Shown here piece after piece: positions 1-21,370 of a DNA stretch of 21,370 bases (the first letter of the stretch is position 1; each line of letters begins with the position of its first letter). Position numbers and translations under genes: made by a program. The DNA is taken from assembly GCA_051652765.1 (NCBI GenBank), contig JBOFUV010000092.1, positions 1 to 21,370 of the forward strand, given 5' to 3'. The notes beneath the pieces are model-generated. The model saw only the letters and a program-made list of their open reading frames with translations, was not told the origin of the DNA and did not search any database. The DNA comes from Microcoleaceae cyanobacterium. GTDB lineage: Bacteria > Cyanobacteriota > Cyanobacteriia > Cyanobacteriales > Microcoleaceae.

Positions 1-191
1 TTGCTATTGGCGGATCTTTGGCGGGTAAAAGCAAAAAGCTCAGAGCTGAAAACTTAAAGAGGCTTGATTTCTTCAGAGAAAAAGCTGAATCCATGACAAA
101 GGAAGAATTGGATCAAGCGATTGCTGAATTTGATAGAGAGTTTGATGGTGAAATCCCAAAATCCCAAATCCTTATCCGCATCAAAAAATAA
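1..191 (+). CDS. 3' end of a hypothetical protein truncated by the window edge (...AIGGSLAGKSKKLRAENLKRLDFFREKAESMTKEELDQAIAEFDREFDGEIPKSQILIRIKK*)
   Basis: Manual translation of frame 3 is open from base 3 to TAA at 189-191, with a charged, helical-looking composition. Not in the ORF track. No family recognised. Confidence 0.65.
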   Translation, partial: AIGGSLAGKSKKLRAENLKRLDFFREKAESMTKEELDQAIAEFDREFDGEIPKSQILIRIKK

Positions 192-332
192 CCGCCTGAT
201 GAATTCACCCTGTCGGTGAATCGCCCCTAGCAGGATCGGCTAGTTGGTGGAGCTGATGTGGCTCAGAAATCCCACGTTCCTGGGATTGCGGAGAAGGGGT
301 CGCTCCCCCATTCGCCTACTCTTCGGAGTAGC

Positions 333-517
333 GAGAGAGAAGAGATTGAGGGCTTTCATAGGGAAATAAGCACCCCCAGTAATGGGCGCGGGCTTCAATA
401 TTTTCAAAAGCTCCTCTTGACTCTCTCACCCTTGCCTACTCTTACAGAGTGAATTAAGCTCCCCGTAATGGTTGTGGGCTTTCAACGGATTCAGAAGATC
501 TATAGGCATTTAAAGGG
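333..517 (+). ncRNA. Putative bridge RNA core: target-binding hairpin (333-427) and donor-binding hairpin (429-517); transcript may begin further upstream (about 195)
   Basis: Hairpin 1: GAGAGAG(333-339)/CTCTCTC(421-427), AAGAG(340-344)/CTCTT(414-418), GGGCTTT(350-356)/AAAGCTC(407-413), AAGC(368-371)/GCTT(392-395), apical CCCA-GTAA-TGGG. Hairpin 2: CCCTT(429-433)/AAGGG(513-517), GCCTA(434-438)/TAGGC(503-507), TCTT(440-443)/AAGA(495-498), AAGCTC(456-461)/GGGCTT(476-481), apical CCCGTAATGG. Each has two ~11-nt internal-loop strands, and two of the four match the junction at 1848-1861. Confidence 0.8.
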
Positions 518-538
518 CAATAGCGGTGATCCGGTATT

Positions 539-543
539 GAGGA
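539..543 (+). promoter_or_regulatory. Shine-Dalgarno-like GAGGA for the recombinase ATG at 551
   Basis: GAGGA lies 7 nt before ATG 551, favouring 551 over the TTG at 545. Confidence 0.6.
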
Positions 544-550
544 ATTGAAT

Positions 551-1795
551 ATGTCCATTATTGGGCTTGACGTTGGGCGCAACCACGCCGTAGCTGCTGC
601 ATTGGAAGAACTTCCTAGCAACATTCAGCGCTACTATTCCCAGCATCGGCGGGAGTTCGTGCGGGTAAATTGCGATAAAGAAGGTTTTGATCTGTTGTGG
701 GCGATGCAACCGGAAAAGGTTGTAATGGAACCGACTGGAGGATGGTATTCACGTCTGACGGCTGAGAGATGCGAAGAGCGAGGGATTGAGGTGCTCTGGG
801 TAGGTCATGCAGACCTGAAGGCTCAGCGGCAAAGTTACGGGTTTAAAAACAAGCGAGATCCTGAGGATGCACTGTGTTTAGCGGCCTGCTATTTTGACAA
901 CCGCTTTATCGACAAGCATGGACAAAAGCGCTTCATTCAATTCAATCAAGACATCCGGTTGCTTCAGGATTGGTTTTATGAGTCTGAGCAACTGGATAAG
1001 GTTGGCAACGGCCTAGTCAACCAGATTCGTCAGCGACTCTGTTACGAGTTCCCAGAGTGGGCTCAACATGGCGCGGGTGATAGCAGTATTAATGACAAAT
1101 TGGGCTGTCACCCTTTTTGGGCAGCGCTTGCAGGGAGCCACTCATATCATCAATTCAAAAAAGCCTACAGTACAACTGTAGGTGCAGGCTTGAGCGATTA
1201 TACCAAGCTTCATGCAGCACAATTGGTTGAGTTACAGCGACGCACCCAACCCCTACTGGAGAAGATGGAGGAGTTCTTATCTAAGCCAGAGTTTGAGCCT
1301 TATTTAAAAGCCATGGCTCCCTTTAAATTCGGGCTGAAGAATAAAGCTTACTTGGTTTGTAAGTTGTACCCGTTTGATAAGTTTCTGGTGGATGGCAGAC
1401 CATGGATTGAGCACCATTCCAACAGCAAGGGGAAAAGAAGCAAGCACGACCACTCGCAGCGGCAATTGCAAGCTTACTTAGGGTTGAGCTACACCATGGA
1501 AAAATCTGGAGATTCAGGTCAGCTCAATAAGAAATTCCATGGTTCTAAGGTTTGCCGTTCAAGCCTCTACATGTGGGCTAAAAACAAGTTTGACCGGGAA
1601 CGAGGGAAACACATGGACTCAGAACAGGGGCAAGCACTATGGCAGAAGCATAGGTCACAGAGACGCTTGCAAGATAATGGTAATGGTCAGTTTAAGGCGG
1701 GGGAAGATGCGATCGGGGGGGACGATGCAATTATTAGACTGCTATTTAGGACGACTTACGAACTTTACAAAAATCTGAAGCAAGAGTTTTTATGA
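551..1795 (+). CDS. IS110-family recombinase/transposase (N-terminal DEDD RuvC-fold domain, C-terminal Tnp domain with catalytic Ser), 414 aa
   Basis: Motifs IIGLDVG (D7), VVMEPTGGW (E60), KNKRDPEDALCLA (D103, D106) and QLQAYLGLSYTMEKSG (S319) correspond to the IS110 DEDD tetrad and the AY.GL....SG motif. Frame intact. Confidence 0.9.
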   Translation: MSIIGLDVGRNHAVAAALEELPSNIQRYYSQHRREFVRVNCDKEGFDLLWAMQPEKVVMEPTGGWYSRLTAERCEERGIEVLWVGHADLKAQRQSYGFKNKRDPEDALCLAACYFDNRFIDKHGQKRFIQFNQDIRLLQDWFYESEQLDKVGNGLVNQIRQRLCYEFPEWAQHGAGDSSINDKLGCHPFWAALAGSHSYHQFKKAYSTTVGAGLSDYTKLHAAQLVELQRRTQPLLEKMEEFLSKPEFEPYLKAMAPFKFGLKNKAYLVCKLYPFDKFLVDGRPWIEHHSNSKGKRSKHDHSQRQLQAYLGLSYTMEKSGDSGQLNKKFHGSKVCRSSLYMWAKNKFDRERGKHMDSEQGQALWQKHRSQRRLQDNGNGQFKAGEDAIGGDDAIIRLLFRTTYELYKNLKQEFL

Positions 1796-1847
1796 GGTTC
1801 AAAGTAAAATTCTGGGGCTTCTCTTTTTTTGAGGTACGGAATATCCT

Positions 1848-1861
1848 AGAGTGAAAATATT
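1848..1861 (+). other. Recombination junction (left-donor / core / right-target) AGAGT-GAA-AATATT
   Basis: 1848-1855 AGAGTGAA is identical to 446-453. 1852-1861 TGAAAATATT is the exact reverse complement of 397-406. Confidence 0.8.
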
Positions 1862-1984
1862 ACTGACTGAAGCTTAACTTACAGCACTTTGCCCAAAGTA
1901 TGGAACATCTAGCCGCTCAAGTCCTTCTTCAAAAGGGAATACAGGGAGAATTTCTTTGTATTACAACCCAACGAAGCCTGCTGT

Positions 1985-2028
1985 AAGTGCTATTAAGGTG
2001 CTATTAAAGTCCTATTGAAGTTCTGTTG
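1985..2028 (+). repeat. Four degenerate 11-bp tandem repeats upstream of ruvA
   Basis: AAGTGCTATTA / AGGTGCTATTA / AAGTCCTATTG / AAGTTCTGTTG. Confidence 0.75.
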
Positions 2029-2046: not shown

Positions 2047-2679
2047 ATGATCGGATATCTTAAGGGAAAAATTACAGAAATTCAGAAAATTAGCAACACT
2101 AAAGTTATTCTGATTTTAGAGGCGAATCATATTGGTTATGAGATTCAGATTGTTCCCCGTTTAATTCAGGATCTCCCTGAATTTGGAGAGAGTATTCAAA
2201 TTTTTACTCACCTCCAAGTGCGAGAAGATCAAATGGTATTGTATGGTTTTTCGAGTACCGCCGAACGCGATTTGTTTCGGCAATTAACGAGTGTTAGTGG
2301 TATCGGAACTCAACTCTCAATTGCTTTATTAGACACATTGGGTTTGCAAAATTTAGTTCAAGCTATTGTCAGTGGAAATACCCGCGTTCTCTCGAAGACT
2401 CCCGGCGTTGGGGTGAAAACCGCCGAACGAATTTCTCTTGAACTGAAGACCAAACTGTCTGAATGGCGACAACAGGCGGGATTACCCAAGACTTCAACAA
2501 CACAATTAACCCCAGAAATTCAGGAAGACATTGAGATGACACTTTTGGCTTTAGGTTACACCGGATCAGAAGTGATGCAAGCTTTACAAGCGATCAGCCA
2601 AAACAAACAGTTGACGCAAAATACGCCAACTGAAGAATGGATTAGAAGCGCAATTAGTTGGTTGGGAGAAAACGTTTAA
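2047..2679 (+). CDS. ruvA: Holliday junction branch migration protein RuvA
   Basis: MIGYLKG start, HIGYEI, HLQVREDQMVLYGF (acidic pin), HhH motifs LTSVSGIG and KTPGVGVKTAERISLELK, C-terminal LLALGY; 210 aa. Confidence 0.97.
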   Translation: MIGYLKGKITEIQKISNTKVILILEANHIGYEIQIVPRLIQDLPEFGESIQIFTHLQVREDQMVLYGFSSTAERDLFRQLTSVSGIGTQLSIALLDTLGLQNLVQAIVSGNTRVLSKTPGVGVKTAERISLELKTKLSEWRQQAGLPKTSTTQLTPEIQEDIEMTLLALGYTGSEVMQALQAISQNKQLTQNTPTEEWIRSAISWLGENV

Positions 2680-5600
2680 ACGGTTGCTCCTGAAGTAAAG
2701 TCTACTTCTGTAATTGAACTGAGTGAAACCTGATTCAAGGTTACCAAGAGTTCAGTCCCCACTTGAATCACAACACTCTCTCCTCGTTGTTCTAGAGTCA
2801 AGTCAAGGAAAGATAGTCCGCCCAAAAGCTCTAGAACATCCTCTCCATCTGTAAAGTCCACAATCACATCGGCTCCGGTCTCTACAACTAGAACAAACTG
2901 ATCCAACCCTGCTCCCCCAGCCAGGGTATCGTTCCCTAAGTCTCCGAGGAGTCGATCGTTACCCTCCCCTCCCACTAAGGTATCGTTATCTTTCCCACCA
3001 AACAATGTATCGTTGCCAGTATCTCCGCAAAGCAGATCTTGTCCTTCGTTGCCACTGATCAAGTCATTGCCTGCACCGCCACAGAGAGAATCTTGGGAAC
3101 CCGAACTGCCTACGGGTTGATCACTGCCAATGTCTCCAAACAATGTGTCGTTGCCAGCATCTCCACAAAGTTCATCATTGCCGCGATCGCCTAGTAACTG
3201 ATCATCCCCCGCTTCTCCAGATAACAAGTCATCTTCTTGGCCCCCTCGGATTAGATCGTTTCCTTCCCCGCCTTTTAAGGTATCGGTGTCGCGGTTGCCC
3301 TGGATAAAATCATTGCCTGAACCCCCCAGCAGAATATCTTGACCGACAGGAACTTGATCGGAATCGTTAGTATCGCCAAACAGGGTGTCGTCTCCCAGAT
3401 CCCCAAACAGGGTGTCATTGCCCAGTTCGCCTCGGAGTTCATCGTTGTCTTTACCCCCATAACCGAAGTCGTTCCCTTGACCTGCATACAGGCGATCGCT
3501 CCCAATACTGCCCTGCATAACATCATTACCCTGGTTCCCGAAGAGAGTATCCTGACTCATCTCACCGCCGACGGAACTTTCTTGACCTGGGTCGCCGACT
3601 AACGTGTCGTTATCCAAGTTGCCAAACACAATGTCATTGCCGTCATTGCCGTAGACTAAATCTTCGCCCCTGCCCCCGTAGAGTGTATCGTTGTCTGCGC
3701 CGCCATCCAAGCTATCGTTATTTTCATTGCCCCCGAGGAAATCATTGCCATCTCCCCCAGTTAGCAGATCTGTTCCAGCCAAATCCGGACTGGATAAGCG
3801 ATTTGTGCCGCCAAACAAAGTATCGTTCCCGGCTTCTCCAACCAAAGAATCAACACCTAAGGAACCAAACAGGACATCATTTGCCGTTCCGCCATTCCCG
3901 AAGTCGTTCCCATCTCCACCATCCAGTAAATCACTGCCGGAATTGCCCAACACATTATCGTTGCCGCCTCCAGCCAACAGGATATCATTGCCGCCAAATC
4001 CCAGAACAGCTTCGTCAGCGTCAGAACCGACCAAGAAGTCATTGGCTTCTGTACCGGGGAGGGTCACTGCCACACTGTTGCCTGCTAAGGGCTCCAGGGG
4101 AAAAGGCAACGTCGGCAGCGTAATTCCGGTAATGGTCATAGCACTGCAAAAGTTACACAGTCCCTCAAACTCCCCCCTGTCCTCATCTTCCAGAACTAAC
4201 CGAACGGTGGCAACATTAGAAACGGCTCCTTCGTTGTCGGTGGCTTGATAGGTGAAAGTAAACTCGGCTTCAGAGGGATTAGAGTCAGGACTAAACCTCA
4301 ATTGATCGGCTTGATCCAGAGTTAAGTCCTGCACCTGACTTAAATCCGTAATTTCCAACCCATCCAGGAACAGTTCTCCTTCAGATGGGGTTAACAGACT
4401 AATCAAATCAAAACTCACAACTTCACCGTCTGGATCAGTTGCAGTTAAGGCCGGGACATCAACGCCATCACTGTCTCTGGGAATATCTTCTAAGAGTAAA
4501 TCTTCGGCAATCGGAGCCAGATTGTTGTCAATCGGAGGCGATTGTTGTTGCGTGACATTCAGAATGATATCCACTGAATTGGAGGAATCCCCGTCATTGT
4601 CAATGGCAAAGTAGCCCAACAACAGCTCTCCTACAAAGTTCGGATTGGGGCTGAAAGACAGGGTACTGGCTTGCTCCCCAGACAAGTTCTGAACTTGGCT
4701 GAGATCGGTAACCGCCACTCCCGCTAAAAATAACGTGCCTTCATCCACCTCTGGCAGCGTGATCAGGGTAAAGCCCTCGATTGTTCCATCTGGGTCAGTG
4801 GCAATTAACGGCGGAATTTCAACTCGATTCACCCCATTGGTAAACTGCGGAACAGTCACGGACTCGGCAATGGGCGGAGTATTGGCGACCAAAGGGATAG
4901 TGACCGTGCCGGGTTCAACTGAAGTCTCGTCATCGTTATCGACGGCAAGAAATTGGAACGTCACCTCACCGACAAAATCTCGATCAGGAATAAATTCAAG
5001 TTGTTCAGCGTCCTCAAAATCGATCAAGTCGTCAACTTGAATGGGCTGGCCATTCAGCACCAGTTGTCCATTCAGGGCTAGTTCGGTAATGATAAAGCCC
5101 TCTACGGTTCCATCCTCATCACTTCCGGTTAACGCTGGGAGATCAACGGTGTGGGTATTTCTGACTTCATCCAGGGTAATATCATCAGCAATCGGAGGTA
5201 AATTTCCCTGAAACACAGGAATGGTGTAAGTCCCAGGAGTTAAATCAAAAGCTCCCTGATTGTCAATGGCGGCATAGGTGAAAACAGCCTCTCCGACAAA
5301 GTCCCGATTGGGCTGAAAGGTTAACTGATCCGCTTGATCAATTAAAACCGGTTCATTTAACTGAACGGGTTCCCCGGCCAGAAAGAGTTCCCCAGCTAAA
5401 TCTGGAATCAGGGATTGAATTTCAAAGCGAACCACTTCCCCATCAACATCACTCCCACTTAAAGCTGGAATCGAAACAGGTTGAGCCGTTCGATTCGAAA
5501 CATCGGGGGCGGTAATGTCGTCGGTTTCTGGGGGAATATTAGCTGGAATCGGCGAAACAATCGGAATTCTGAAGGTTCCGGGCAAGCTTTCTGCATTGTC

Positions 5601-8600
5601 ATCATCCGTCGCCACATAGCGGAAATTATCCGTGCCAACAAAATCCCGGTTGGGAGAATAGAGCAATTCATCGGCTTGATCCAAGGGAATCAGCAAGGCT
5701 GTGTCTGTAATGGGCTGATTTCCCAGAAACAGTTGACCATTGTCGGGCAAGTCAACTACCCGGAAATTCACTAGGACACCGTCTTCATCTATTCCTTGTA
5801 AAGTACTTAGGGGAGCTTGGGTTTGATTAACATCAATCTCTGAATTGAAAATATCTTCAACGATTGGAGGTCGATTGATCACCGGAATATTAAAACCCGC
5901 TGTGTTTGAAACGGCGTTTTCATTGTCAATCGCGACATAGTTAAACCCTGTCAGCCCTTTAAAGCTTGGGGTTGAAGTGAAAGTCAAACTGTCGGCTAGG
6001 GAGATCGGAATAAGTTGATTGGGATCAATCAAAGCTTCGCCGTTTAGGGAGATCTGACCTGCCAAGGGAAAATTCACAATCCGGAAGCCAACGACCTCTC
6101 CATCAGAGTCACTCCCAATCAGGGAATTGAGATCTACCTGAATCGAATTGGAGAGAATGTCAGGGTTATTAATCGTCGTGGCAACTGGGGGCTGATTGGG
6201 GTTAGTGGGAATGGCAATCAGGGCTGGATTTAAGGACTGTTCGTTGTCATCATCTGTGGCCGTATAGGAAAACGTGGCAGTGCCTGTGAAGTTAGGATTG
6301 GGTAAGAAGGTCAGTTGACGGCTCTGTGCTTCTGTCAACTGAGCCACCTGACCTAACCCAGTAACAGGTTGCCCCGCCAAGAGTAATTGACCATTACTAG
6401 ACAGTCGATCAATGGTGAAAAACTCAACCGTACCATCTTCATCCTCGCCAATCAGCGGCGGAATCACCACAGGAACCGCTGGATTTCTCACGGGAGGCTC
6501 AACCGTAATATTTTCAACAGTGGGGCGCTGATTGAAAATGCCTCCGGTCACAATCGGAATCGTCACCACCCCAGTGTTGAGCGATCGCAACCCTTCATTG
6601 TCGGTCACGATGTATTCAAAGAAGTCCGCACCGATGAAGTCGCTATCTGGTGTAAAGGTCAATTGAGTCGCCTGTTCGATCTCAACCGCTTGTAATTGGT
6701 CAATATCTGTAATTGGTTGACCCTCAAAAAACAATCGACCCTCTGAGGGAAGTTGCTTCAAGCTAAATTGCTCGACGGTTCCGTCTACATCGACTCCGTT
6801 CAGCAGGGGAATCACAGGAACCTGACTTGCTTGATTGTTCACCGGATCGAGGAAAATCTTATCCGCAACCGGGGGAAAATTGGCAATGCTGGGAATGATA
6901 TAGGTCGCTGGGGTTGGATCTTCCCCCCCTTCGTTGTCGATGGCTGCGAACTGAAAGAGCGCAAAGTTAAATGGGGGCTCAGGACTAGGAGTAAACGTCA
7001 AGTCCCCAGCTCGATCCGCAGGAACCACTGCGTTCAGTTCCAGGGGTGTACCATCCAAGAACAGGGTTCCCTGAGTTGGCAGTTGCGTAATTCTAAACCC
7101 AGTCACAAAGCCATCAGCATCACTTCCCTGCAAGGGGAGCAAAGGAACTTGAACATCGGTAGGACGAATGAAGTTCCCAACGACATCCTCTGTTTCCGGG
7201 AGTTCATTCGGAATATCCGTAATCGCAATGGTTGCGATCGCCAGATCGCTGTTAAAGCCATCCTCCCTAGCTTTATCTCGGACAATCACCTCAACGGTTC
7301 TTGGAGTAGTCGTTGGGTTAATCGAGGCGTTATTATAGACGATGCCATCGATAATGGCTTCATAGTCCTCCAAACTAGCGCTGCCATTAATTTCTATGGT
7401 GGTGCCATCCGCATTGACCGTCAGTCCCAATTGATCCACCAAGGTCTGGGCTGCTTCATTAAAGCCGATGCTTTCCAGAGAGCCATCCAGCGGATTCGTG
7501 AGACGAATCGTTGCGACCTCCAGAGTGTCATCATCTGCATCTTCGATTAACGATTGATTGGCAATGGCAACGGGATCTTGACCTTCGGTAAATCCGGTCT
7601 CAAAATTAACTCCAGGGGTAGTTGTCCGATCCAAATCTAGGACTGGAGGCTCCTGCAAGGTTTGAATCCGAACACTGCGGAGTTCGTGAAAGTTAGTGCC
7701 AGTTCCTGTAGACCCCGCAAACCCAAACTTAAACGTCTCCGGGAAATCCCCATTATCGGCTTTAACATCTAGATTGTTAATTAGCAGTTCATTGGGCTCA
7801 ATGACCTGATCGAAATCTAAATCCAGGGAAACCGAGAGCAACCCATCCTGAGTCAGCAGGATTTCAACAGTTCTCCGACTCTCCTGATTACGCGCATTAA
7901 CGTCAGTATCAATCCCAATCGGGAGTACTCCGGTAGTCGTAATAAAATCATAGCCGTCAGCTTCGCTGCCCCGAATCGTAATCGCATCAGGGGTTGAACC
8001 CGGCCCCCCTATTCGGCCTTCGCTCGCTCTGGGATTGGCAAAGTTGCCAAATGCATCAAAGCCAATGCCAAGATAACCGCCTTCCAGTCCCGGTTTACCC
8101 TGATCAATTCTGGGAGCATAGCCCAAGGAACCCCCAAATCCTCCACTGGTGGTGGGAGATGCGTCACCATCAATCAAGAAAAAACTAATCCCATCGGCTC
8201 GTTTGTCCCCGGTTCCTCCATAGGCGAAGAACTCGAACTCTAACTTCAATCCAGCATCGGAGCGAACAGGAAAATCGTAAATGACAAATCCAGCTTGCTC
8301 ACTTGCATTTGAGGTCAGTCGTAATGCTCCGGCTCCCTCTAAGTCCGGAGTGAACCCCGCAGGAACTCCTGGAATTCCTCCCTCTTGGGGGGCTCGATCA
8401 GGTCTGGCCGTGAGGAAGGGATTTTCTAGGTCGCTTGGAGTATCGGAGGTTGTGCCCGTGCCAAAGATCCATCTCAGTTGATCATCAAAGGGGGGTTGAA
8501 AAGAAAGGTCAGCGTTGACAAAAGTTTCATCAACCAGCAGAATCAGAACAGAGGTGTAAGCCCTTAGAACCTCTGAGCGAAAGGGTAAGATCTGATTCAC

Positions 8601-9086
8601 TTCACCTGTTGTGACTTCAAGACTCCAATTTCCTCCCAGAGATGAACTGCCCGTTAAGGTCTGAGAGGCAGCAATATTGGCTCCTGTTAACTGAGCCAGA
8701 CCATCAACGAAATTGCGACCGTGCTCTCCTGCGGCAACACAGCATCCATAGAGTAAAATTTTTCCAGTCTGACCGAGGGCGATTTTCCACTGTTGGAATT
8801 GCTCTTTATAGGTTTCTAGGGTTTCTAAACTGAGTTCGACATTCCCGAGGCGTAGTCTTCCCGAAGATCCGTGGGACAAAATATGTAGCGATTCAATGTC
8901 CTGGTATTTCCCTAGGGCTTGGGTGATCTGAGTCACGCCATCTTGTTCGGAGCTGAGAAGAACAACACTGGCTTGAGGATCAATACCCTGAACTAAACTC
9001 TGATAGTCAGAAATGGATGAATCAATAACAACAACAGTCCGATCAACTTCAAACACTCTAGTATTCATACCTGAATTTACTGACAT
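2676..9086 (-). CDS. Large secreted/surface protein: DUF4347 + L-type (legume) lectin-like domain + nine Ig/cadherin-like repeats + RTX (haemolysin-type) Ca-binding repeats
   Basis: N-terminal LHILSHGSSG...ILLYGCCVA...GGNWSLE (DUF4347); ADGISFFLID...GGSLGYA...GYLGIGFDAFGNF...FKFGFAGSTG (lectin-like); many GGxGxDxL nonapeptides; C-terminal GADVIVDFTDGEDVL typical of T1SS substrates. Start uncertain (GTG 9095, ATG 9086 or ATG 9068). Confidence 0.88.
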   Translation of the reverse strand: MSVNSGMNTRVFEVDRTVVVIDSSISDYQSLVQGIDPQASVVLLSSEQDGVTQITQALGKYQDIESLHILSHGSSGRLRLGNVELSLETLETYKEQFQQWKIALGQTGKILLYGCCVAAGEHGRNFVDGLAQLTGANIAASQTLTGSSSLGGNWSLEVTTGEVNQILPFRSEVLRAYTSVLILLVDETFVNADLSFQPPFDDQLRWIFGTGTTSDTPSDLENPFLTARPDRAPQEGGIPGVPAGFTPDLEGAGALRLTSNASEQAGFVIYDFPVRSDAGLKLEFEFFAYGGTGDKRADGISFFLIDGDASPTTSGGFGGSLGYAPRIDQGKPGLEGGYLGIGFDAFGNFANPRASEGRIGGPGSTPDAITIRGSEADGYDFITTTGVLPIGIDTDVNARNQESRRTVEILLTQDGLLSVSLDLDFDQVIEPNELLINNLDVKADNGDFPETFKFGFAGSTGTGTNFHELRSVRIQTLQEPPVLDLDRTTTPGVNFETGFTEGQDPVAIANQSLIEDADDDTLEVATIRLTNPLDGSLESIGFNEAAQTLVDQLGLTVNADGTTIEINGSASLEDYEAIIDGIVYNNASINPTTTPRTVEVIVRDKAREDGFNSDLAIATIAITDIPNELPETEDVVGNFIRPTDVQVPLLPLQGSDADGFVTGFRITQLPTQGTLFLDGTPLELNAVVPADRAGDLTFTPSPEPPFNFALFQFAAIDNEGGEDPTPATYIIPSIANFPPVADKIFLDPVNNQASQVPVIPLLNGVDVDGTVEQFSLKQLPSEGRLFFEGQPITDIDQLQAVEIEQATQLTFTPDSDFIGADFFEYIVTDNEGLRSLNTGVVTIPIVTGGIFNQRPTVENITVEPPVRNPAVPVVIPPLIGEDEDGTVEFFTIDRLSSNGQLLLAGQPVTGLGQVAQLTEAQSRQLTFLPNPNFTGTATFSYTATDDDNEQSLNPALIAIPTNPNQPPVATTINNPDILSNSIQVDLNSLIGSDSDGEVVGFRIVNFPLAGQISLNGEALIDPNQLIPISLADSLTFTSTPSFKGLTGFNYVAIDNENAVSNTAGFNIPVINRPPIVEDIFNSEIDVNQTQAPLSTLQGIDEDGVLVNFRVVDLPDNGQLFLGNQPITDTALLIPLDQADELLYSPNRDFVGTDNFRYVATDDDNAESLPGTFRIPIVSPIPANIPPETDDITAPDVSNRTAQPVSIPALSGSDVDGEVVRFEIQSLIPDLAGELFLAGEPVQLNEPVLIDQADQLTFQPNRDFVGEAVFTYAAIDNQGAFDLTPGTYTIPVFQGNLPPIADDITLDEVRNTHTVDLPALTGSDEDGTVEGFIITELALNGQLVLNGQPIQVDDLIDFEDAEQLEFIPDRDFVGEVTFQFLAVDNDDETSVEPGTVTIPLVANTPPIAESVTVPQFTNGVNRVEIPPLIATDPDGTIEGFTLITLPEVDEGTLFLAGVAVTDLSQVQNLSGEQASTLSFSPNPNFVGELLLGYFAIDNDGDSSNSVDIILNVTQQQSPPIDNNLAPIAEDLLLEDIPRDSDGVDVPALTATDPDGEVVSFDLISLLTPSEGELFLDGLEITDLSQVQDLTLDQADQLRFSPDSNPSEAEFTFTYQATDNEGAVSNVATVRLVLEDEDRGEFEGLCNFCSAMTITGITLPTLPFPLEPLAGNSVAVTLPGTEANDFLVGSDADEAVLGFGGNDILLAGGGNDNVLGNSGSDLLDGGDGNDFGNGGTANDVLFGSLGVDSLVGEAGNDTLFGGTNRLSSPDLAGTDLLTGGDGNDFLGGNENNDSLDGGADNDTLYGGRGEDLVYGNDGNDIVFGNLDNDTLVGDPGQESSVGGEMSQDTLFGNQGNDVMQGSIGSDRLYAGQGNDFGYGGKDNDELRGELGNDTLFGDLGDDTLFGDTNDSDQVPVGQDILLGGSGNDFIQGNRDTDTLKGGEGNDLIRGGQEDDLLSGEAGDDQLLGDRGNDELCGDAGNDTLFGDIGSDQPVGSSGSQDSLCGGAGNDLISGNEGQDLLCGDTGNDTLFGGKDNDTLVGGEGNDRLLGDLGNDTLAGGAGLDQFVLVVETGADVIVDFTDGEDVLELLGGLSFLDLTLEQRGESVVIQVGTELLVTLNQVSLSSITEVDFTSGATV
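4195..7208 (-). repeat. Nine tandem ~110-aa Ig/cadherin-like repeats within the DUF4347 protein
   Basis: Recurring NxPP...LxGxDxDGxVxxF...LTFxP...FxYxAxDN units starting NELP, NFPP, NQRP, NQPP, NRPP, NIPP, NLPP, NTPP, NLAP. Confidence 0.85.
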
Positions 9087-9293
9087 AGCCTGCACCTGTA
9101 CCTAATCAAAATGAGGGATCAAAGCACATAGGGGTCTTATACTTAAGCAGTTACATTTTATACGAAGTCAAAGCGTTTTAGGGAAATCGGCTATGGTCTT
9201 GATCAACTCAGACTTTGGAGAGACCGAACTATATCTTTGGTGATATATTGTATGTCAAGTTCTTGACCTACTGTGAAATATTACTGTATTTGA

Positions 9294-11573
9294 TCAGCCC
9301 TGTTTGATTGGAATCTCAATCACAAATTCAGTGCCTTTGTCTAAAACTGAATGACACGTTAACTGCCCCCTATGTTTTTCAACTACGATTTGATAGCTGA
9401 TGGATAATCCCAATCCAGTGCCTTGCCCGACATCCTTAGTGGTGAAAAATGGATCAAAAATTTTGTCCTGAACTGCTTCAGAAATTCCTCCCCCATTATC
9501 TCGAATCCGAATTTGAGCTGATTTAGACTGTACTTTTTCAGTTGTGATCCAAATTGTTGGTAATGTTGTCTGGACTGTTGTTTGGAGTGCTGTTGAAGAT
9601 CCTGTTGAAGGTGTTATTAAAAGTTCAGGAAGGGGAGAATGATCTTGAGTTGCAAAGTGGGTTTCTAGGGCATCGATTGCATTACTCAAAAGATTCAGTA
9701 ACACTTGGTTGAGCTGGCCAGCATAACATTCAACCCGAGGTAACTCTCCGTAGCGTTTAACGATCTGAATTTTAGGACAGTTTTGAGGAGTCTTTAAACG
9801 GTGCTGCAAAATCAGTAAAGTACTGTCAATCCCTTCATGGAGATTAACTGACTTAAACTCAGCTTGATCCAATCGGGAAAAATTGCGTAAGCTGAGAACA
9901 ATGTCTTGAATCCGACTGGTTCCTTCCGCCATTGAACTGAGTAATTTGGGCAAGTCTTCTACTAGGAACTCTAATTCACTAGCCTCAATGCGCTCTTGGA
10001 TTTCTGGAACGGGTTCAGGATAATATTCTTGATACAGGTGAAGAATCTCTAGAATATCGGCAATGTACTCTCTGGCATAAGTAACGCTGCCATGAATAAA
10101 ACTTACAGGATTATTAATTTCATGGGCGACTCCGGCAACCATTTGACCCAAACTGGACATTTTTTCTGTTTGAACGAGTTGCGCTTGAGTCTGTTTCAAA
10201 TCTTTCAAGGCATCGGAAAGTTTTTGAGTGCGTTCTTCCACTCTATCCTCTAGTTCTACATTGGTTTTTTCTAGGGCAGTGAAGGAATCCTCTAGCTGTT
10301 CCGCCATCTGGTTGAAAGAGTTGGCCAAGATGCCTAGCTCTTGAATTTTGTACTTCGGGACTCGTTGATGGAGATTGCCAGAGGCGATCGCCTCAGCCGC
10401 TTTTCCCAACCGGAGAATGGGCTGGCTAATCCAGCGAGCGGTTAATAACCCGAGCGCTATAGTTGCCCCTAGAGAGGCCAGAGATAACAACAGGGTTGTG
10501 CGAGTATTGGCATGAATTTGGGCCATGAAGTCTGACCCTGGGACAGTAACCACGACAACCCAGTCCAAGCCAAACTGATCTCGCCACGGCGTAACTTGCA
10601 CAAACCGTTTCTGACCTTTGTCGATAAAGTCATGATGTTGGTGAACCTGGATCGCAGCAAAGGAGCCTACCGTTGCTTTCAGATGTTGGGCAGTCGCCTG
10701 AATCACTGGATCAGCACTATCAAGGGCGTTGATCCGCTGAGCTTCTCCGTTGACCACTCGATAAGTTGGAGCAGAACCAGAATTTCCAATCAACAGACCA
10801 TCCCGTTCAATAATAAAAATTCGTCCTGACGGACTCAGCTTAAACTGTTGTAGAAAACGATTGATATCTGACAGGAGTAAATCCACACCAAAAACACCGA
10901 GGAGTTGATTGTTTTTGTCATACATTGGGGCGTTAAACGAGGCCGTAATATAGCCTTCAAATCCCTCAGCCGTATAAATTTGACTCCAGATGGGTTTTCC
11001 GGCTTTGGCCGTTTCTGCATACCATTCATCTTGCTCAGCATTGTATTCGTAAATGTCGATCAACTGAGTGCGATTGCCTTTGGCATCCGTAGCATAGACA
11101 TAGTCTTTGTTGCTGGTTTGAGCGTCAATAATCAGACCATAGCCCTCTAACCAGCGTCCTGCCCCCACTCCACCATAGTTTTTGAGATAATAGCCAACAT
11201 AGCTAACATGAGGATGAATCTGAGCCTGCTTCCAGAGGTGGCGACCTGCAAGATTAAAATCTCGACCATCAAAGAGTCCAGCAGCGATCGCATCAGTCCC
11301 CGCCGCCACAATCTGACGAGGAACCAAAAGATATTGATCGAGATGTTGGTCAACCTGATCACTGGTTTTGTCCATCAACTGTTCAGCCAAGTCATTAACT
11401 GCCGCCTGACCATTGCGAAAAGAAAGATACCCAACCAGTCCAACGACTCCACAGACTTGCAACACAAAGGGAACAATTAGCAAAGCTTGGAGAGGAAACT
11501 GTCTCCAACTTTTTCGGAGGGGAGAAGGCGAGGCTTCAGAAGATGTGACAATCATCCGACAAGGATTCTCCAT
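9294..11573 (-). CDS. Membrane sensor histidine kinase (TM - Cache-type sensor - TM - HAMP - HisKA - HATPase_c)
   Basis: TM LLIVPFVLQVCGVVGLVGYLSF; Cache motif WY...GKPIWSQIY; HAMP ISQPILRL...ELGILANSFNQM; H-box AGVAHEINNP; N-box NQVLLNLLSNAIDA; G1/F/G2 boxes DNGGG, IFDPFFTTK, GTGLGLSIS. Start uncertain (ORF is open to 11684; ATGs at 11573 and 11555). Confidence 0.93.
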   Translation of the reverse strand: MENPCRMIVTSSEASPSPLRKSWRQFPLQALLIVPFVLQVCGVVGLVGYLSFRNGQAAVNDLAEQLMDKTSDQVDQHLDQYLLVPRQIVAAGTDAIAAGLFDGRDFNLAGRHLWKQAQIHPHVSYVGYYLKNYGGVGAGRWLEGYGLIIDAQTSNKDYVYATDAKGNRTQLIDIYEYNAEQDEWYAETAKAGKPIWSQIYTAEGFEGYITASFNAPMYDKNNQLLGVFGVDLLLSDINRFLQQFKLSPSGRIFIIERDGLLIGNSGSAPTYRVVNGEAQRINALDSADPVIQATAQHLKATVGSFAAIQVHQHHDFIDKGQKRFVQVTPWRDQFGLDWVVVVTVPGSDFMAQIHANTRTTLLLSLASLGATIALGLLTARWISQPILRLGKAAEAIASGNLHQRVPKYKIQELGILANSFNQMAEQLEDSFTALEKTNVELEDRVEERTQKLSDALKDLKQTQAQLVQTEKMSSLGQMVAGVAHEINNPVSFIHGSVTYAREYIADILEILHLYQEYYPEPVPEIQERIEASELEFLVEDLPKLLSSMAEGTSRIQDIVLSLRNFSRLDQAEFKSVNLHEGIDSTLLILQHRLKTPQNCPKIQIVKRYGELPRVECYAGQLNQVLLNLLSNAIDALETHFATQDHSPLPELLITPSTGSSTALQTTVQTTLPTIWITTEKVQSKSAQIRIRDNGGGISEAVQDKIFDPFFTTKDVGQGTGLGLSISYQIVVEKHRGQLTCHSVLDKGTEFVIEIPIKQG

Positions 11574-13925: not shown

Positions 13926-16900
13926 TTACCAGGGTGTCCCAATCAGGGTAAATCCAGCCCAGTAATAGGGATGAGCAAGGCTCTGGGAATCAATATCTGC
14001 CAGTTCAGGGGGTAACGGAATCGATCCTTGATTTGTGATTAACTGGCCCGATTCAATCCGAACCTTGCCCTGAATCATACTGACCTGAGCCTGCTGTAGA
14101 GCTATAGACTTAATCGGGGCAGTTCTTAAAGCGGCGTAGAATTCACTCATCAAGCCTAAAGTTCCCTGATCACTGACGTACCACAAACTGGCGATCGCCG
14201 ACTTTACCCCAGCCTGTACCGCTAACCCCGCAAATCCCAACTCCGCCTGACGGTCTCCTACCGCTGTTCGGCAGGCACTTAAGACCAATAGCTCCAAGGG
14301 CGGTACATCCCAGTTGAGATTGGGCAGTTGAGTCAGGGGCAGACGACCGTCCCAAAGCTGAATGTAGGAGTTTTTCGGGGCTCCTGGTTGAAAGTCGGCA
14401 TGGGTTGCCAGGTGAATGATGTCATATTCCGTCAGCCGGCGCTGCACCTTCAAATTTGCAAGGGTGAAGGATTCATTTAGGAAGGTTTGACTCGGCCAGA
14501 GTTCGGCAATGGTTGCAACTTCTAGCGGTACCGCAGGCAGAGGATTTTGATCCCTGAACGTACTGGCTCCCATGGCCAGAATATCTCCCTGCCGCAAGGA
14601 GTCGTAGCGCGTGTTGATGAAACTGGTACTGGGAATCAGGCTGTAGCTATACTTTTCAACCAGGAATTGTTTGCCATCCCAAAGCGCCGCTAGAGGGAGA
14701 CTCCGCAGTCCCGGCCCGAGAGAAAATAACAGAGTGGTTGCCCCCATTTGTTGGAGATCGGCTGCAATCGGTTGCAGAATCCAGTCATGAAGTTGTTGGG
14801 CAGGCCCTTGATAGCGATTGGTGTCCCGTTCCCTGGGATTAGTAATGCTCACTTGCAACTCTCGAATCACCGGAAATAGCTTCTCTGAAGTAGCTTCAGG
14901 CACACTACGACGCACTGGAGAGCCAGAGGACGGAATCAAAATTAGCTCTAACTGTTCCTCACGGGCGACAACGTAGACAACGACATAGACTTCTCTGGTT
15001 TCTCCTTCAATCCGTTTGAGGACTTCCTGAATCGCTTTTCGGTCAACTAAAGACGTAGTTAGCCCCAAATATTCCTCAAATTCTCGATTCCAACTCCGTT
15101 CCACAAGCAGCAAAGTCGTGTCAAGATTCCCACCTTGAAAGGCAAAGTCGGAAGACGCAATTAAATCACTCGGGTTAAAGCTGATTTCACCCGAATCATC
15201 CCCCGGATCGATGGTAATCCCAGTTTCATCCGAGGCTTGATCCCGAGAAATCAGATCTCGACCAATGGCGATCGCCTCCCCTTGTCTCAAATCACCGTTG
15301 GGATCGCCATTGATTGGCAGTTCAGGGTCAGGAATTAGCGGATCGTCAGTTTGGAAGGCAATATTGCCCTCCGTTGCCGAACGGGGCAAGGTCGTTGGCG
15401 CAGTAACTACGGCGGTGCCACTCGTAATTGTTCCGGCAGTGCCGTTGACCCCAGGGTTTCCGACTTCAAAGGCAGCGACAGGAGCGTTTAACTCTCCACC
15501 GGCATGACGAATCGTAATCGATCCGCCGCCGTTTGGACTACCTGTGGACAGACTCGCAGTTCCCGTAGGAGAGAATGGGGTGGGAAACGTCTCTGTAGCG
15601 CGGAAAAACCGACTGGTGGAGGTGATCGAAATATTGCCTCCGACCCCTTGAGTGCCGCCTTCTGAACGAATCGAACCCACTTCAATGTCCCCTAGGGGAT
15701 CAAGGATGACGTTCCCGCCGCTGCCGGGGGAACCACTAGCGTTGATTTGTCCGGCCCGAATGGCCGTCTCTGCCTGGATTGTAACAGCTCCTCCGGTTGT
15801 GCCTGTTGCAGTCAAATTTCCAGTGGCGATCGCCCCAGCAGGCGCAGTCACGGTGATAGCACCCCCAGGTTCTGTGGGTGAGGTCGTACTTAGGCTGCCT
15901 GTGGTTAAATTTTGTTGTTGGCTACTGAGGGTAAGGGTTTCAGCGGTGATGTCTGCCGTGGTTAGGGCTTGATCAGTGGTGATGTCAACGACACCGCGAC
16001 TGAAGAGTGAATTGTTTAAAATCGTCGTTCCCTCGGCCTCAACGTCAACGCCCCCGGAACCCACGGTAATTGGCCCCAGTCCGGTGACGTTGCCACCCAG
16101 AATCTGCAAACCGTTCAGGGGTAAGACGTTACCCACGGTTCCTAAGGTCACGTTCCCGAATCCGGCATTCAGGGTGAGCTGTCCCGGCCCCTCGACTTCA
16201 GGAGTTAAGACCAAGGCTCCATTAGTGCTGTCTGTTTCCAGGGCTACGGTGTCGCCAATCACGTTAACCTGGCTTACCCTGGAGAAATCCAAGCCTCCCC
16301 CTGAGAACACGTCCCCTGATAAACTAACGATTCCTGCTTGCAGGTCTACTCCAGCTAATTCTCCGCCATTCTCACCGACGGAATCTAAGGTGACCGTTCC
16401 TCCAGTCCCGGCATTTAGGATGAGGCGATCGCCCACTCCCGTGATCGGACTGTTATTGAAGAGAATATTTCCAGGATTTAAGGTCGTCAGGGTCACGCCC
16501 GTGGTCAGAACTGTTCCTCCCGTTGCCCCGGTAAAGTCCAGGGTGTCATTGACGGTTAAGTTCCCGTTCAAGGTTGTTGTTCCACTGGTACGAACTTGTA
16601 GACTGGATAAGGGGTTGAGGTTCCCCACGGTAAACAAACCCACGGTTCCTGTCCCTGCGTCCAGGGTTAAACTGGGACTGTCTGCAACGGAATTCGTGGC
16701 ACGGTTAATCGAATTGCCAAAGCGGATATTGCCACTGCTTCCGGTTCCAGTCGTGTCAAGGGTAACGGAATTGTCCAACACCACGGGAGCGTCGAAGTTC
16801 AGGGACCCTCCTTGGCCCGCTGTGGCTGAAACAGTCAAGTTCCCGCCCAAGGTCACCGGGGTCTCCGAGGTGAACGTCACCGTTCCCCCTTGGGAGGTCG

Positions 16901-19900
16901 GGGCCGCCGAACGAGTACTGGTGTTAATTTCCCCGGTTAAGAGCTGGCCGGGAGCGTTGAGGGTAACGGCTCCGCCACTGACCTCGGCAGAACTCGTATC
17001 GACCCTGCCACCACGGGTATCGATATTGCCCTCAGCACTGGTTAAATTCACCGCTCTGCCAGGATTGATGACATCGCCTGTAACAATGTTATTCTGAGCA
17101 TTGAGGGTGAGGGTGGCGGTTTCGGTTCCGGCGAGGGTGAAGCCCTGGGCGTTAACTGATTCTGCCCGCAGCACAAGGGGGGAACGGAAGGTAACATCTC
17201 CAGCCAGGTTAATTGCACTGCCCTGTTCCTCGGCTCCAATGGTGATTGCACTTAAGTTTGCTTCTAAACGGTTGAGTTCAGCGGCGGTCAGTTCCAACGC
17301 TTCCGGGTTAATCGTTTCGATGCCGCCCAGGGTAATGCCCTGATTCGGGGTGAAGGGTTGTAAGGTTAGGGATTGGCCGTTGCCACTAACTGCATTCTCA
17401 AAATCAAGTTCATCCCCGGTGAGGGTTAAGTCAGTCAGCAATGTGACTTCATCTCCGTAACGCTGTCCTGAGTCCCCTGTAGCGGTGATATTGCCATTCA
17501 ACACGGTGGTGCCGCCGCCATTGGTGAAAACGCTGGCGGCATTGACGGCGCTGTTGAACGTTGTTGGGCCTGAACTGTTGACCGTTAACGCTCCCACCGG
17601 AACCAGATCTCCAACGGGTTCAGCAAACTGGACTGTACCCGTTCCCGCCTCTAGGGAGAGGGCATTCGCATTGGCTGTCCTGCCATTGAGAGAACCGTTG
17701 AAGGTAATGGTTCCACTGCTAACCCCCCCCGCCGTCGTGATCAAGGTCGTTGGCTGGGTCAACTGCGTAGTTTGGTTCAGTTCTACAGATCCCCCTTGAC
17801 CCACAGGAGCCGAGGTGTCAATCTCTCCGGTTACGATAATTTGGTTGCCTGCATTGAGGGTGACAGGGCCACTGGTTGCGCCTCCCGAGTCTTGGGTGCT
17901 GCGGGTGTCAATCTCACCCACGGTTAAGGTTTCGGCAGCGTTGAGGGTGATGGCTCCCCCATCACTGCTCCCAGAATCACTCCTGAGCACCCCGTTGCTT
18001 GTGTTGACTGCGCCGTCATTACTGGTAACCGTAATGTTTCCGCCTGGATTGTTGATCTCTCCGGTTCTCACCGCCTGATTCCCGGTGAGGTCAATGGCTC
18101 CTCCCCCCAGGGACTCAATCAGGGATGTGTTACTCAAGAACAGGGCAATTGGGTTTGTCCCGGTGCTGGTTCCATTGATTTGAATGGCCCCGATGTCCGA
18201 TAGAACCACGCTGTTGAAACTGCCAATACCAAAACTGTTGGCTCCGTCTCCTCCCGTTCCGCTCAGATTAACGGCTCCAATTCCTCCCGCCCTGATTTCA
18301 GTGTTGCTCAACAGAAGTATCCCGTCGTTGTTGCCCCCTGAGCCGGTTGCAGTTCCCGCCAAGGCAATATCCCCAGCGTCAATTGTTTCAATCAAGCTGT
18401 TGTTGGTGAGAATGCCCTGACCACTGGTAGTGCCATTGCCCGTTCCGGTTAACTCAATCCCGCCACTAGCAGAACTGATTAAGTTGTTATTTAGAATCGA
18501 AATGCCTTGGCTGTTCGGGCCATTACTACTGGTTCCTGCCAGGGTGATGGTTCCGGTGCCTGAGGTGGTTAAATCAGCCTGATCAAACAGGACAATGCCG
18601 TCGTTATCGAGGCCCGTTCCCTGGCTTAATCCCACCAAGGAAAGATTGCCAGTGCCCTCAGAGAAAAGAGTTCCGCCTGCGTTGATCAAAATGCCCTGAC
18701 TCTGGTTCGTGCCGCGTCCGGTGCCGAAGAGTTGAATATTGCCGTCATTGGACTGAACAAAGCCATTTTCAAAGAGTAAAATTCCTTCGCTGGCTGCGCC
18801 ATTGCCACTCGTTCCAGCAATCGCAATGTTGCCGATTCCGGTTGAGATCACTTGCGAAGCTCGAATCACTACCCCATCATTGTTGTCTCCCAAGGCATTA
18901 CTGGTTCCTGCGAGGTTAATGTCGCCATCGGTGGATAACAGTTGAGCATTGCCCGTCAGGGTAATTCCGTTGGTATTTCCTTGACCGAGTAGGGCCGTTC
19001 CCGTTAAATCAATTGCCCCAGTTCCCGTCGAGATTAACGTGTCCTGAAAAATATTGATCCCACCCCCCGTTGCGGTGAAATTGCCATTGCCTGTATCAAT
19101 CGTGGCGTTGCCAATATTTACACTGCCTGTTGCTGTAAAACTCCCATTAGCCGTGTTAATCGTAGCGTCATTAATGATAATGCCAATGCCTGTTGCTTCA
19201 AAGTTGCCATTGGCAGTATTAATCGTGGCGTTGCCAATATTTACACTTCCTGAACCGTCGTTATCAATATCAGCGGTGAAGGCAATATTTAAACGAGCGG
19301 TTTCGGTCACTTCATTAATACTCTGATTAAAAATATTAATGTTATTCGCAGCATTAAAAACTAACGTTGCTTCCTCAACGTTTACCTCCGGAAAAGGATC
19401 AAAGTCGATGGAAGCATTGAGATTAATATCCCCAATGCCGGGTTCATTCGCATCCGTTGCGATGATAACAGTATTGCCAACTCCCAACCCGTCTTCAATC
19501 AGACTGACTTCAATAATGCTGCCCCCCTCAACCGGAGGAGGAGCACCATCTTCGATAATAGTAATAGTTTGAGGATCGATCAGCCAGGTTCCCCCAGTCC
19601 CGTTGGGAGCAGACAGATCAGGGGCATTGGTAACGGCTAAAAGCCCTCGACTACTGGTTTCAACAAAGCCCCCATTACCAAGGGTTAAGCCACCTCGAAC
19701 ACTAATTTTTCCGTCAATTTGGGTGTAATCCTCTGACCAAACAATCACCCGACCCCCCGATCCATTTTGTAAGGCATCGGCTCGAATCAAAGAGTTGGGA
19801 TCAACAAAAGTTTGTAAGGCATTCGGGAGGGAACCGGAACCCTGATAGTCTCCCCCAATCCGAATCGTTCCGCCGCCATTGCCACTGGCATTAATCGTTG

Positions 19901-20954: not shown

Positions 20955-21370
20955 GACTAGAACCTTATCTTGTGAAGCAACGCTCAAAATGAAAGCTCCC
21001 ATGCGGTACGCAAGAAACGCTTAATGTCCTCAGGGGGATGAAAGTCGCAACATAGAGCAATCAGGAATGACTTATAAAATGTCTGTTAAAATGTCTGTGA
21101 TGCAGGCAGGATAGGTACTCCACGTTCATGCTTTAAGCTAGATTACTATAGCAACCCTAAATAAGGGACGAGAAACTCAAGAGATTTGGGCACAAAGCTC
21201 CAAGAGAGGCAGCTCCTTCACCCATTTCAATATATATTTCACAGATTATCTAGGATTGCGATCTGAAGTCTCATTAAAGCTCAGTAGAGGGGCGGTAGGC
21301 AGATTCTAGCATTCTAAATGGATCGCAGATTAGCGGTTTACAATTCGCTAGCAATTCTTATTTAGCCGCC

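Follow-up and report, generated by a model that had tools for sequence, protein, structure and literature searches.

Passages of PMC11208160 describe IS621 as an element in which a DEDD and serine recombinase works with an upstream RNA bearing target and donor loops; its ends have a short common core of two bases, the left and right guides pair with opposite strands, and the RNA, adjacent to the left core, is transcribed from a promoter that arises when the circle junction forms. IS110-family genes are also found at the end of filamentous proviruses, namely Neisseria Nf/MDA and Thermus phiOH16, Zuza8 and Zuza27, where they are believed to encode the integrase; guide RNAs are not described in the passages on these proviruses (PMC11437467, PMC7058167). 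Expanded IS110 loci, which are large and IS110-bounded with guides that fit their flanks, are reported to arise by progressive accretion, mostly of plasmid DNA and resistance genes, and their mobility as whole units drops with size, none being seen above ~20 kb (10.64898/2026.08.14.744561). That report had already revised in print the idea of always-minimal IS110 elements from which the first-pass annotation of the present DNA had started, and 'prophage', 'cyanobact', 'capsid' and 'ribozyme' have no occurrence in its main text. Phage hammerheads with a stem I–II pseudoknot flank genes in prophage regions (PMC3088659), and a preprint that clusters bridge RNAs reports a divergent hammerhead cluster, the parts of it drawn on here giving no gene context (10.64898/2026.10.21.760802). 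The literature searched, which included few subscription papers and no supplements, held no IS110-integrated cyanobacterial provirus and no natural ribozyme 5′ of a bridge RNA; the supplementary tables of two 2026 preprints could include such loci.

The DNA analysed here, referred to as the window, is the entire contig C92 (21,370 of 21,370 bases) within a 5.04-Mb draft genome of a Microcoleaceae cyanobacterium. We propose, with a probability of roughly 0.7, that it carries the right end of an integrated, provirus-like element of ~17.3 kb with an IS110-family bridge recombinase as its integrase. The ends, the target site, the guide–DNA complementarity, the intact catalytic residues, the gene content and the family were read from the sequence, and excision, virions and cleavage are predictions. 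As in IS621, a DEDD and serine recombinase is preceded by an RNA with target and donor loops, a short core is common to both ends, and the left and right guides pair with opposite strands; unlike in IS621, the core has three bases, the RNA lies ~15 kb from the left core, a hammerhead motif stands before the RNA and ~25 further genes are carried. The element and its two sisters (~17.3, 15.7 and 13 kb, with the RNA 11–15 kb from the left core) also differ from compact canonical IS110 elements. They resemble the expanded loci of 10.64898/2026.08.14.744561 as far as these are described there, being large and IS110-bounded with guides that fit the flanks, and their sizes are below the 20-kb mobility limit, but they show one conserved virus-like genome plan in place of accretion.

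Element ends, sister copies and target sites

Bases 1–99 of C92 recur without a difference at the beginning of three other contigs, on the same strand in C84 and on the opposite strand in C87 and C94. We read this exact stretch as a collapsed repeat inside a small gene common to two elements; the assembly breaks there, within the element, and the left end is therefore absent from the window. The 3′ part of this early gene, of ~82 aa, occupies 3–191 (+ strand), its start codon being at C87:157 on the minus strand; it is nearly identical in the C94/C84 sister element, and a family search gave no match above the cut-off. The first-pass annotation had reported that a predicted 14-base left junction was missing from 1–550, with a best near-match of 8/14 at 82–95, and that a co-oriented frame stops just before a structured RNA. 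We recounted the near-match by eye with the same result, and the stop codon does lie at 189–191 with the RNA from 192. Across the 5.04 Mb the 14-mer has no exact match; the tolerant search suggested at the time returned three one-mismatch and 40 up-to-two-mismatch matches, none of them on C87 or in window 1–550. The real left junction, on C87, has most of the predicted bases, but relative to the 14-mer one is substituted and one is missing, and a search that allowed only mismatches could therefore not find it.

The claim that the element reaches past the window was borne out, since ~15.5 kb more, with further genes, lies on C87, and the RNA and recombinase do sit at the extreme right end. The element does not begin within 192–330, both sister copies also reaching 11–14 kb leftward, and the frame ending at 191 is not the normal host neighbour of ruvA, as none of 14 relatives' ruvA loci matches window 1–1855. 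The missing left end is confirmed, and its interpretation as that of a cargo-bearing element is supported.

From its junction coordinates, the window element spans ~17.3 kb over C87 and C92. Two sister elements lie elsewhere in the genome, one of ~15.7 kb on C19/C116, where C116 runs on into C19 via an 84-bp overlap with one mismatch, and one of ~13.0 kb on C94/C84. C92 and C116 have a common right end up to a three-base core (window 1853–1855, + strand, the right junction) and then diverge, the window continuing as host DNA from 1856; the left ends of C87 and C19 have the same bases after the same core, which in the window element lies at C87:15539–15541 on the minus strand. A short non-coding right end (1796–1852, +) precedes the right core, its last bases being common to the C116 sister, and host ruvA (2047–2679, +) lies outside the element. 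As both ends are in direct orientation, the element should be excisable, and an invertible segment, the other outcome envisaged for this comparison, was rejected. The right core overlaps the recombinase stop codon in L061, L062, L063, L064, L065, L067, L069, L078 and L079, so these nine elements are without a non-coding right end.

The insertion sites of the three elements in this genome are an NfeD-like gene (at its 3′ end), a GNAT gene and the spacer between the CCA-adding-enzyme gene and ycf34. In the C19/C116 element, the core marks the precise point at which the GNAT gene is split; the two parts match uninterrupted homologues in the genomes G002 and G005 across the core and rejoin in frame there. 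Apart from the short core at both ends, the target is not duplicated and there are no terminal inverted repeats. The C94/C84 element lies between ycf34 and the CCA-adding-enzyme gene, two genes that adjoin in 6/7 relatives, and its predicted empty site is present in G001. This adjacency fixes the pairing of C94 with C84 and leaves that of C87 with C92, with which the left guide agrees; for the C87–C92 join the evidence is the 99-bp overlap together with the guide match, and elimination of the other pairing. NfeD and ruvA were not neighbours in the relatives examined, so the empty site of the window element itself is without confirmation from synteny.

The insertion alters only the last few codons of the NfeD-like gene and leaves it open (L002:15532–15765, window 1856–1877), and the C19/C116 sister truncates its GNAT gene. 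A short host repeat, with copies on C101, C1, C129 and C87, lies just right of the insertion at window 1876–1987. At one locus of G002 (L021 ~1445–1465, G002:C163), nine bases left of the core are in common with the right end of the C84 element; this genome is without the CCA–ycf34 adjacency, showed no element genes upstream of ycf34, and may here carry the scar of a recombinase-driven rearrangement. Host genes on C92 include PSRP-3/Ycf65, which points to a cyanobacterial host, and, within 2676–9095 and 13926–21002, those for two large proteins, a repeat-rich surface-type protein of 2139 aa and a haemagglutinin-like one of 2358 aa with an apparent CHAT domain, as judged by eye.

Recombinase, bridge RNA and hammerhead motif

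The 414-aa IS110-family bridge recombinase is encoded at 551–1795 (+). It matched PF02371 with 23 bits, over the cut-off of 21.3, and PF01548 with an E value of 4.6e-6 and 26.9 bits, below the cut-off of 29. Residues D7, E60, D103, D106 and S319, which we take to correspond to the catalytic residues of IS621, are invariant in 12/12 aligned relatives. The genome holds three recombinases of this IS110 family, on C92, C116 (79% identical) and C84 (27%), and relatives at E≤1e-30 were found in 31 of 401 cyanobacterial genomes. A related-locus search with the recombinase gave no match in viral, genome or metagenome contigs; among INPHARED phages neither the recombinase nor two proteins of the conserved block described below had a match, and integrase matches were weak only.

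The predicted bridge RNA (288–500, +), the ends of which we infer, is made of 5′ hairpins, a target-binding loop and a donor-binding loop. The left target guide (357–365, +) is identical by eye at 8/9 positions to the host flank and core at C87:15547–15539, the single difference being compatible with a G–T wobble, and the right target guide (397–406, +) is complementary at 10/10 positions to the core and host right flank at window 1852–1861. In the donor loop, the left guide (446–453, +) is identical at 8/8 positions to the element's right end (1848–1855), and the right guide (484–493, +) pairs with the core and left end on C87, over six contiguous pairs or nine given one bulged base, both as read by eye. 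In each of the three elements of this genome, the guides before the recombinase fit the flanks and ends of the same element around the three-base core; the target guides of the C116 and C84 RNAs differ and each fits its own flank. Among the relatives, the right junction could be read by eye at 14 or more of 34 loci, and in each of these the right target guide fits its own flank at seven or more positions; this comparison covers right junctions only and is without a scripted family-wide score. In two cases, a pair of loci from one genome differs in its guides, and the flanks differ to match. We consider the element boundaries and the guidance by RNA to be well supported, with little room for doubt.

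Directly before this RNA lies a non-canonical, type I hammerhead-like motif (192–291, +), which most relatives have in canonical form. Its stem I (192–195 with 288–291) is followed by the first core box (196–202), two extra hairpins plus stem II (203–264), one extra base (265), the second core box (266–269) and stem III (270–274 with 281–285), all on the + strand, and cleavage is predicted between 287 and 288. Searched with a descriptor for type I hammerheads, 28/36 loci gave a match upstream of the recombinase, as against 1/1080 shuffles and 3/1500 random genome windows, mostly 190–270 bases before the recombinase start codon; a looser pattern added three more loci. Covariation was assessed on 24 canonical copies, after two duplicates and those with inserts had been set aside. 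Stems I and III and the loop II pseudoknot had 94% of cells paired with 75 double changes, a level reached by 0/500 shuffles and compared with at most 43% paired in slid controls; the covariation score was 0.556 against ≤0.158 in those controls, kinship inflating such counts and being retained by the sliding. Pairs 2–5 of stem II are intact in 24/24 canonical copies, and the pseudoknot, a stem I–II contact, has at least five pairs in 21 of them (controls: 21% across loci, 7% shuffled). With its core, three stems, NUH site and stem I–II contact, the motif in the relatives has the hallmarks of a type I hammerhead. Rfam returned nothing at its gathering threshold in the window or in the loci of 20 relatives, where matches were at chance level with high E values.

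The three copies in this genome keep the core boxes and stems I and III with compensatory changes, and have two hairpins inserted before stem II and one base after it. No pseudoknot is evident in the window's copy, and a close relative in G007 is without the motif. Core insertions can impair hammerhead cleavage (PMC3088659), so we give the window's copy about even odds of being active. Processing of the RNA by a ribozyme is likely for the family and uncertain for the window's own copy. The motif resembles the phage hammerheads described in PMC3088659 in its type I topology, pseudoknot and location in a prophage region; it differs from them in the two hairpins inserted in the core in the window's clade and in a fixed placement immediately 5′ of a guide RNA for recombination, suggestive of a specific function.

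Gene content, distribution and competing explanations

The cargo on C87:1–15541 begins with small early genes co-oriented with the recombinase, continues into a divergent arm with a putative repressor, and includes a C39 peptidase that matches an endolysin PHROG (E 2.9e-15), a 196-aa tyrosine recombinase, a tail-fibre-like protein and a run of uncharacterised genes ending in two membrane proteins. The sister elements have the same gene order, with genes homologous or replaced, and 7–9 kb per element consists of conserved genes without assigned function. Profile scans with Pfam and PHROG found no terminase, portal, known capsid, packaging ATPase or replication protein in the three elements, none of whose proteins has a P-loop motif. 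Likewise, no Zot/pI ATPase was matched among the 41–43 scanned proteins of the C87 and C94 elements, no rolling-circle initiator among scanned ORFs of at least 50 aa, and no relaxase or type IV secretion protein in the Pfam scan. None of 42 host CRISPR spacers matched convincingly.

The first-pass annotation had offered a genomic island, a prophage or an excision element, and of these prophage fits best. An ICE was rejected, as the Pfam scan showed no relaxase or type IV secretion genes. Heterocyst excision elements of the xisA/xisC/xisF type interrupt nif or hup genes and have a terminal tyrosine or serine recombinase; this class was rejected since none of the three target sites is in such a gene. 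The elements resemble the Neisseria and Thermus filamentous proviruses in their terminal IS110-family gene, but measure 13–17 kb against ~8 kb for Nf, reside in a cyanobacterium, lack a recognisable Zot/pI ATPase and rolling-circle initiator, and have a lysis peptidase, as far as those proviruses are described (PMC11437467, PMC7058167). Of the Caudoviricetes hallmarks terminase, portal and HK97-fold capsid, the profile scans matched none in the three elements; such genes do occur in two other carriers of the module, L144 and L066.

The most conserved protein of the left-hand gene block is basic, ~190–210 aa long and represented by 717 sequences at 50% identity. We infer from its position, charge and conservation that it is a candidate capsid protein; its gene was found in 37/401 genomes, 19 of which also have the recombinase at E≤1e-30. 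Structures were predicted for two element proteins. The 212-aa conserved protein has a confident predicted fold (pLDDT 89.7) with no Foldseek match at E≤0.001 in PDB or BFVD (best Z 3.6, rmsd 7.2, 94 aligned), which is no proof of a new fold. The 359-aa protein (pLDDT 67) was closest to a 2H-phosphoesterase, with a Z of 5.9 and an rmsd of 6.2 over 120 aligned residues, a likeness that we do not trust. The top BFVD matches of the models for L002:13151–13786 and L002:11935–13011 are A0A510E8A2 (E 0.046) and A0A510E869 (E 1.7e-4), unnamed entries with neighbouring accessions, perhaps of one virus genome; ESM Atlas gave unnamed clusters or no match. The 212-aa family has no homology to the 359-aa family or to a 182-aa positional equivalent, and in some members, both sisters included, the slot of the capsid candidate is taken by unrelated proteins of 120–187 aa (L001:11507–12055, L086:385–948, L065:15015–16111).

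Flanks were examined at 34 recombinase loci, a subset of the relatives listed. The conserved block was present in 20/34, and of the 14 without it, 13 reach a contig end within ~8 kb and one (L066) has a terminase small subunit. Among 20 loci picked by the candidate capsid gene, no IS110 recombinase was found in the examined stretch, nor was one expected in 18 of the 20; the 12 of these that were annotated include one with a long tyrosine integrase, one with a primase-helicase and five amid host genes. Those five (L226, L227, L230, L236 and L237) have the block surrounded by ordinary host genes and show neither an integrase nor a replication gene close by; they are possibly domesticated or decayed proviruses. 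Block genes also occur on circular ParAB plasmids of Nostocales HT-58-2 (L245 and L246, CP019638.1 and CP019637.1), which are candidate phage-plasmid forms. At the far end of IS110-less members lies a gene for a conserved, membrane-anchored P-loop protein of 415–436 aa with no Pfam match (L225:3394–4701, L228:1605–2846, L235:2100–3344).

The hammerhead pattern matched at least 120 IMG/VR stretches, and one of 79 such loci has the same RNA–recombinase module (L144, IMGVR_UViG_3300045911_000712, 4718–11573); on this 15.4-kb viral contig the hammerhead–RNA–IS110 module lies beside portal, scaffold and major head genes. Since the block is seen with other carriers and the cassette beside phage head genes, block and integration cassette are separately exchangeable modules, as is expected of temperate viruses. 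The present elements may also be linked to the Microcystis MVGF contigs and the NIES-298 P1 plasmid described in parts of PMC12510456.

These observations bear on three other explanations. The element could be an expanded, cargo-carrying IS110 that accreted phage-derived DNA and makes no particles of its own, in keeping with reported IS110 loci that reach ~100 kb and are partly phage-derived (10.64898/2026.08.14.744561) and with the failure to recognise a capsid or packaging gene in the three elements. We consider this unlikely: the cargo is non-random, one gene order with divergent early and late arms recurring in 20/34 flanks across families, plasmids and loci with other integrases have the same block, and the genes carried include one for a lysis peptidase. 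That the element is instead a satellite or defective prophage packaged by a helper phage, its block serving for example host attachment or defence, would suit its size of 13–17 kb, the lack of a recognised terminase or replication enzyme, and the persistence of the block alone amid host genes at five loci. Satellites usually keep less, however, than the lysis and tail-fibre-like genes and the 7–9 kb of conserved uncharacterised genes seen here, and we consider this explanation likewise unlikely.

A role as integrase for the short tyrosine recombinase, with the IS110 module as a passenger at the element's edge, is very unlikely. This enzyme does have a Phage_integrase match and catalytic motifs in 3/3 elements of this genome, and was found in 20/34 relatives. 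Although catalytically plausible, it lies mid-element, is only ~196 aa long and is absent from some members (L074, L077), whereas the ends, with just three bases in common, are predicted by RNA guides that vary per site. Moreover, a 27%-identical short recombinase is encoded on plasmid CP019637.1, where the block is present and IS110 absent, which suits a role as resolvase. We retain an integrated provirus-like element with the bridge recombinase as its integrase, and regard its viral nature, as judged from gene content, as likely.

Proposed life cycle and significance

Upon induction of such a provirus, the recombinase and RNA would join the two cores and release a circle. Products of the conserved left-hand gene block would replicate and package this circle, and particles would leave the cell through the action of the peptidase and the membrane proteins; in a new cell the target loop would pick the chromosomal site. 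Some 6+6 changed guide bases would give a different attachment site, so that, we propose, three such elements can coexist at three sites. As the RNA lies ~15 kb from the left core, a junction-formed promoter as in IS621 cannot drive it, and a scan for promoters stayed at chance level. The RNA would probably be transcribed with the early genes, and the hammerhead, placed right after the last early stop codon, would set its 5′ end; with no junction promoter possible, release from the early transcript by self-cleavage is a likely substitute.

A broader reading, which we hold tentatively and at somewhat less than an even chance, is that these elements represent widespread, undescribed temperate viruses of cyanobacteria, in which the virion protein is without a match among the searched folds and integration relies on a natural cassette of two RNAs: the hammerhead cuts the bridge RNA from the early transcript, and the guide is re-programmed from virus to virus, giving new attachment sites. 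Tailed phages would exchange this cassette with them. Inoviruses integrated by IS110 and IS110s with cargo are known, and the integration mechanism is a variation on one already known; the virus-like group served by it here may be new. With the present elements, RNA-guided recombination reaches beyond insertion sequences and small filamentous phages to include provirus-like genomes of 13–17 kb, with natural whole-unit boundaries and many naturally re-programmed guides. The elements suggest how a bridge RNA could be made at a distance from the circle junction, and what natural job a phage hammerhead may have. They are also a source of cyanobacteria-native recombinases handling large cargo, and point to an unclassified group of cyanobacterial viruses open to induction and imaging.
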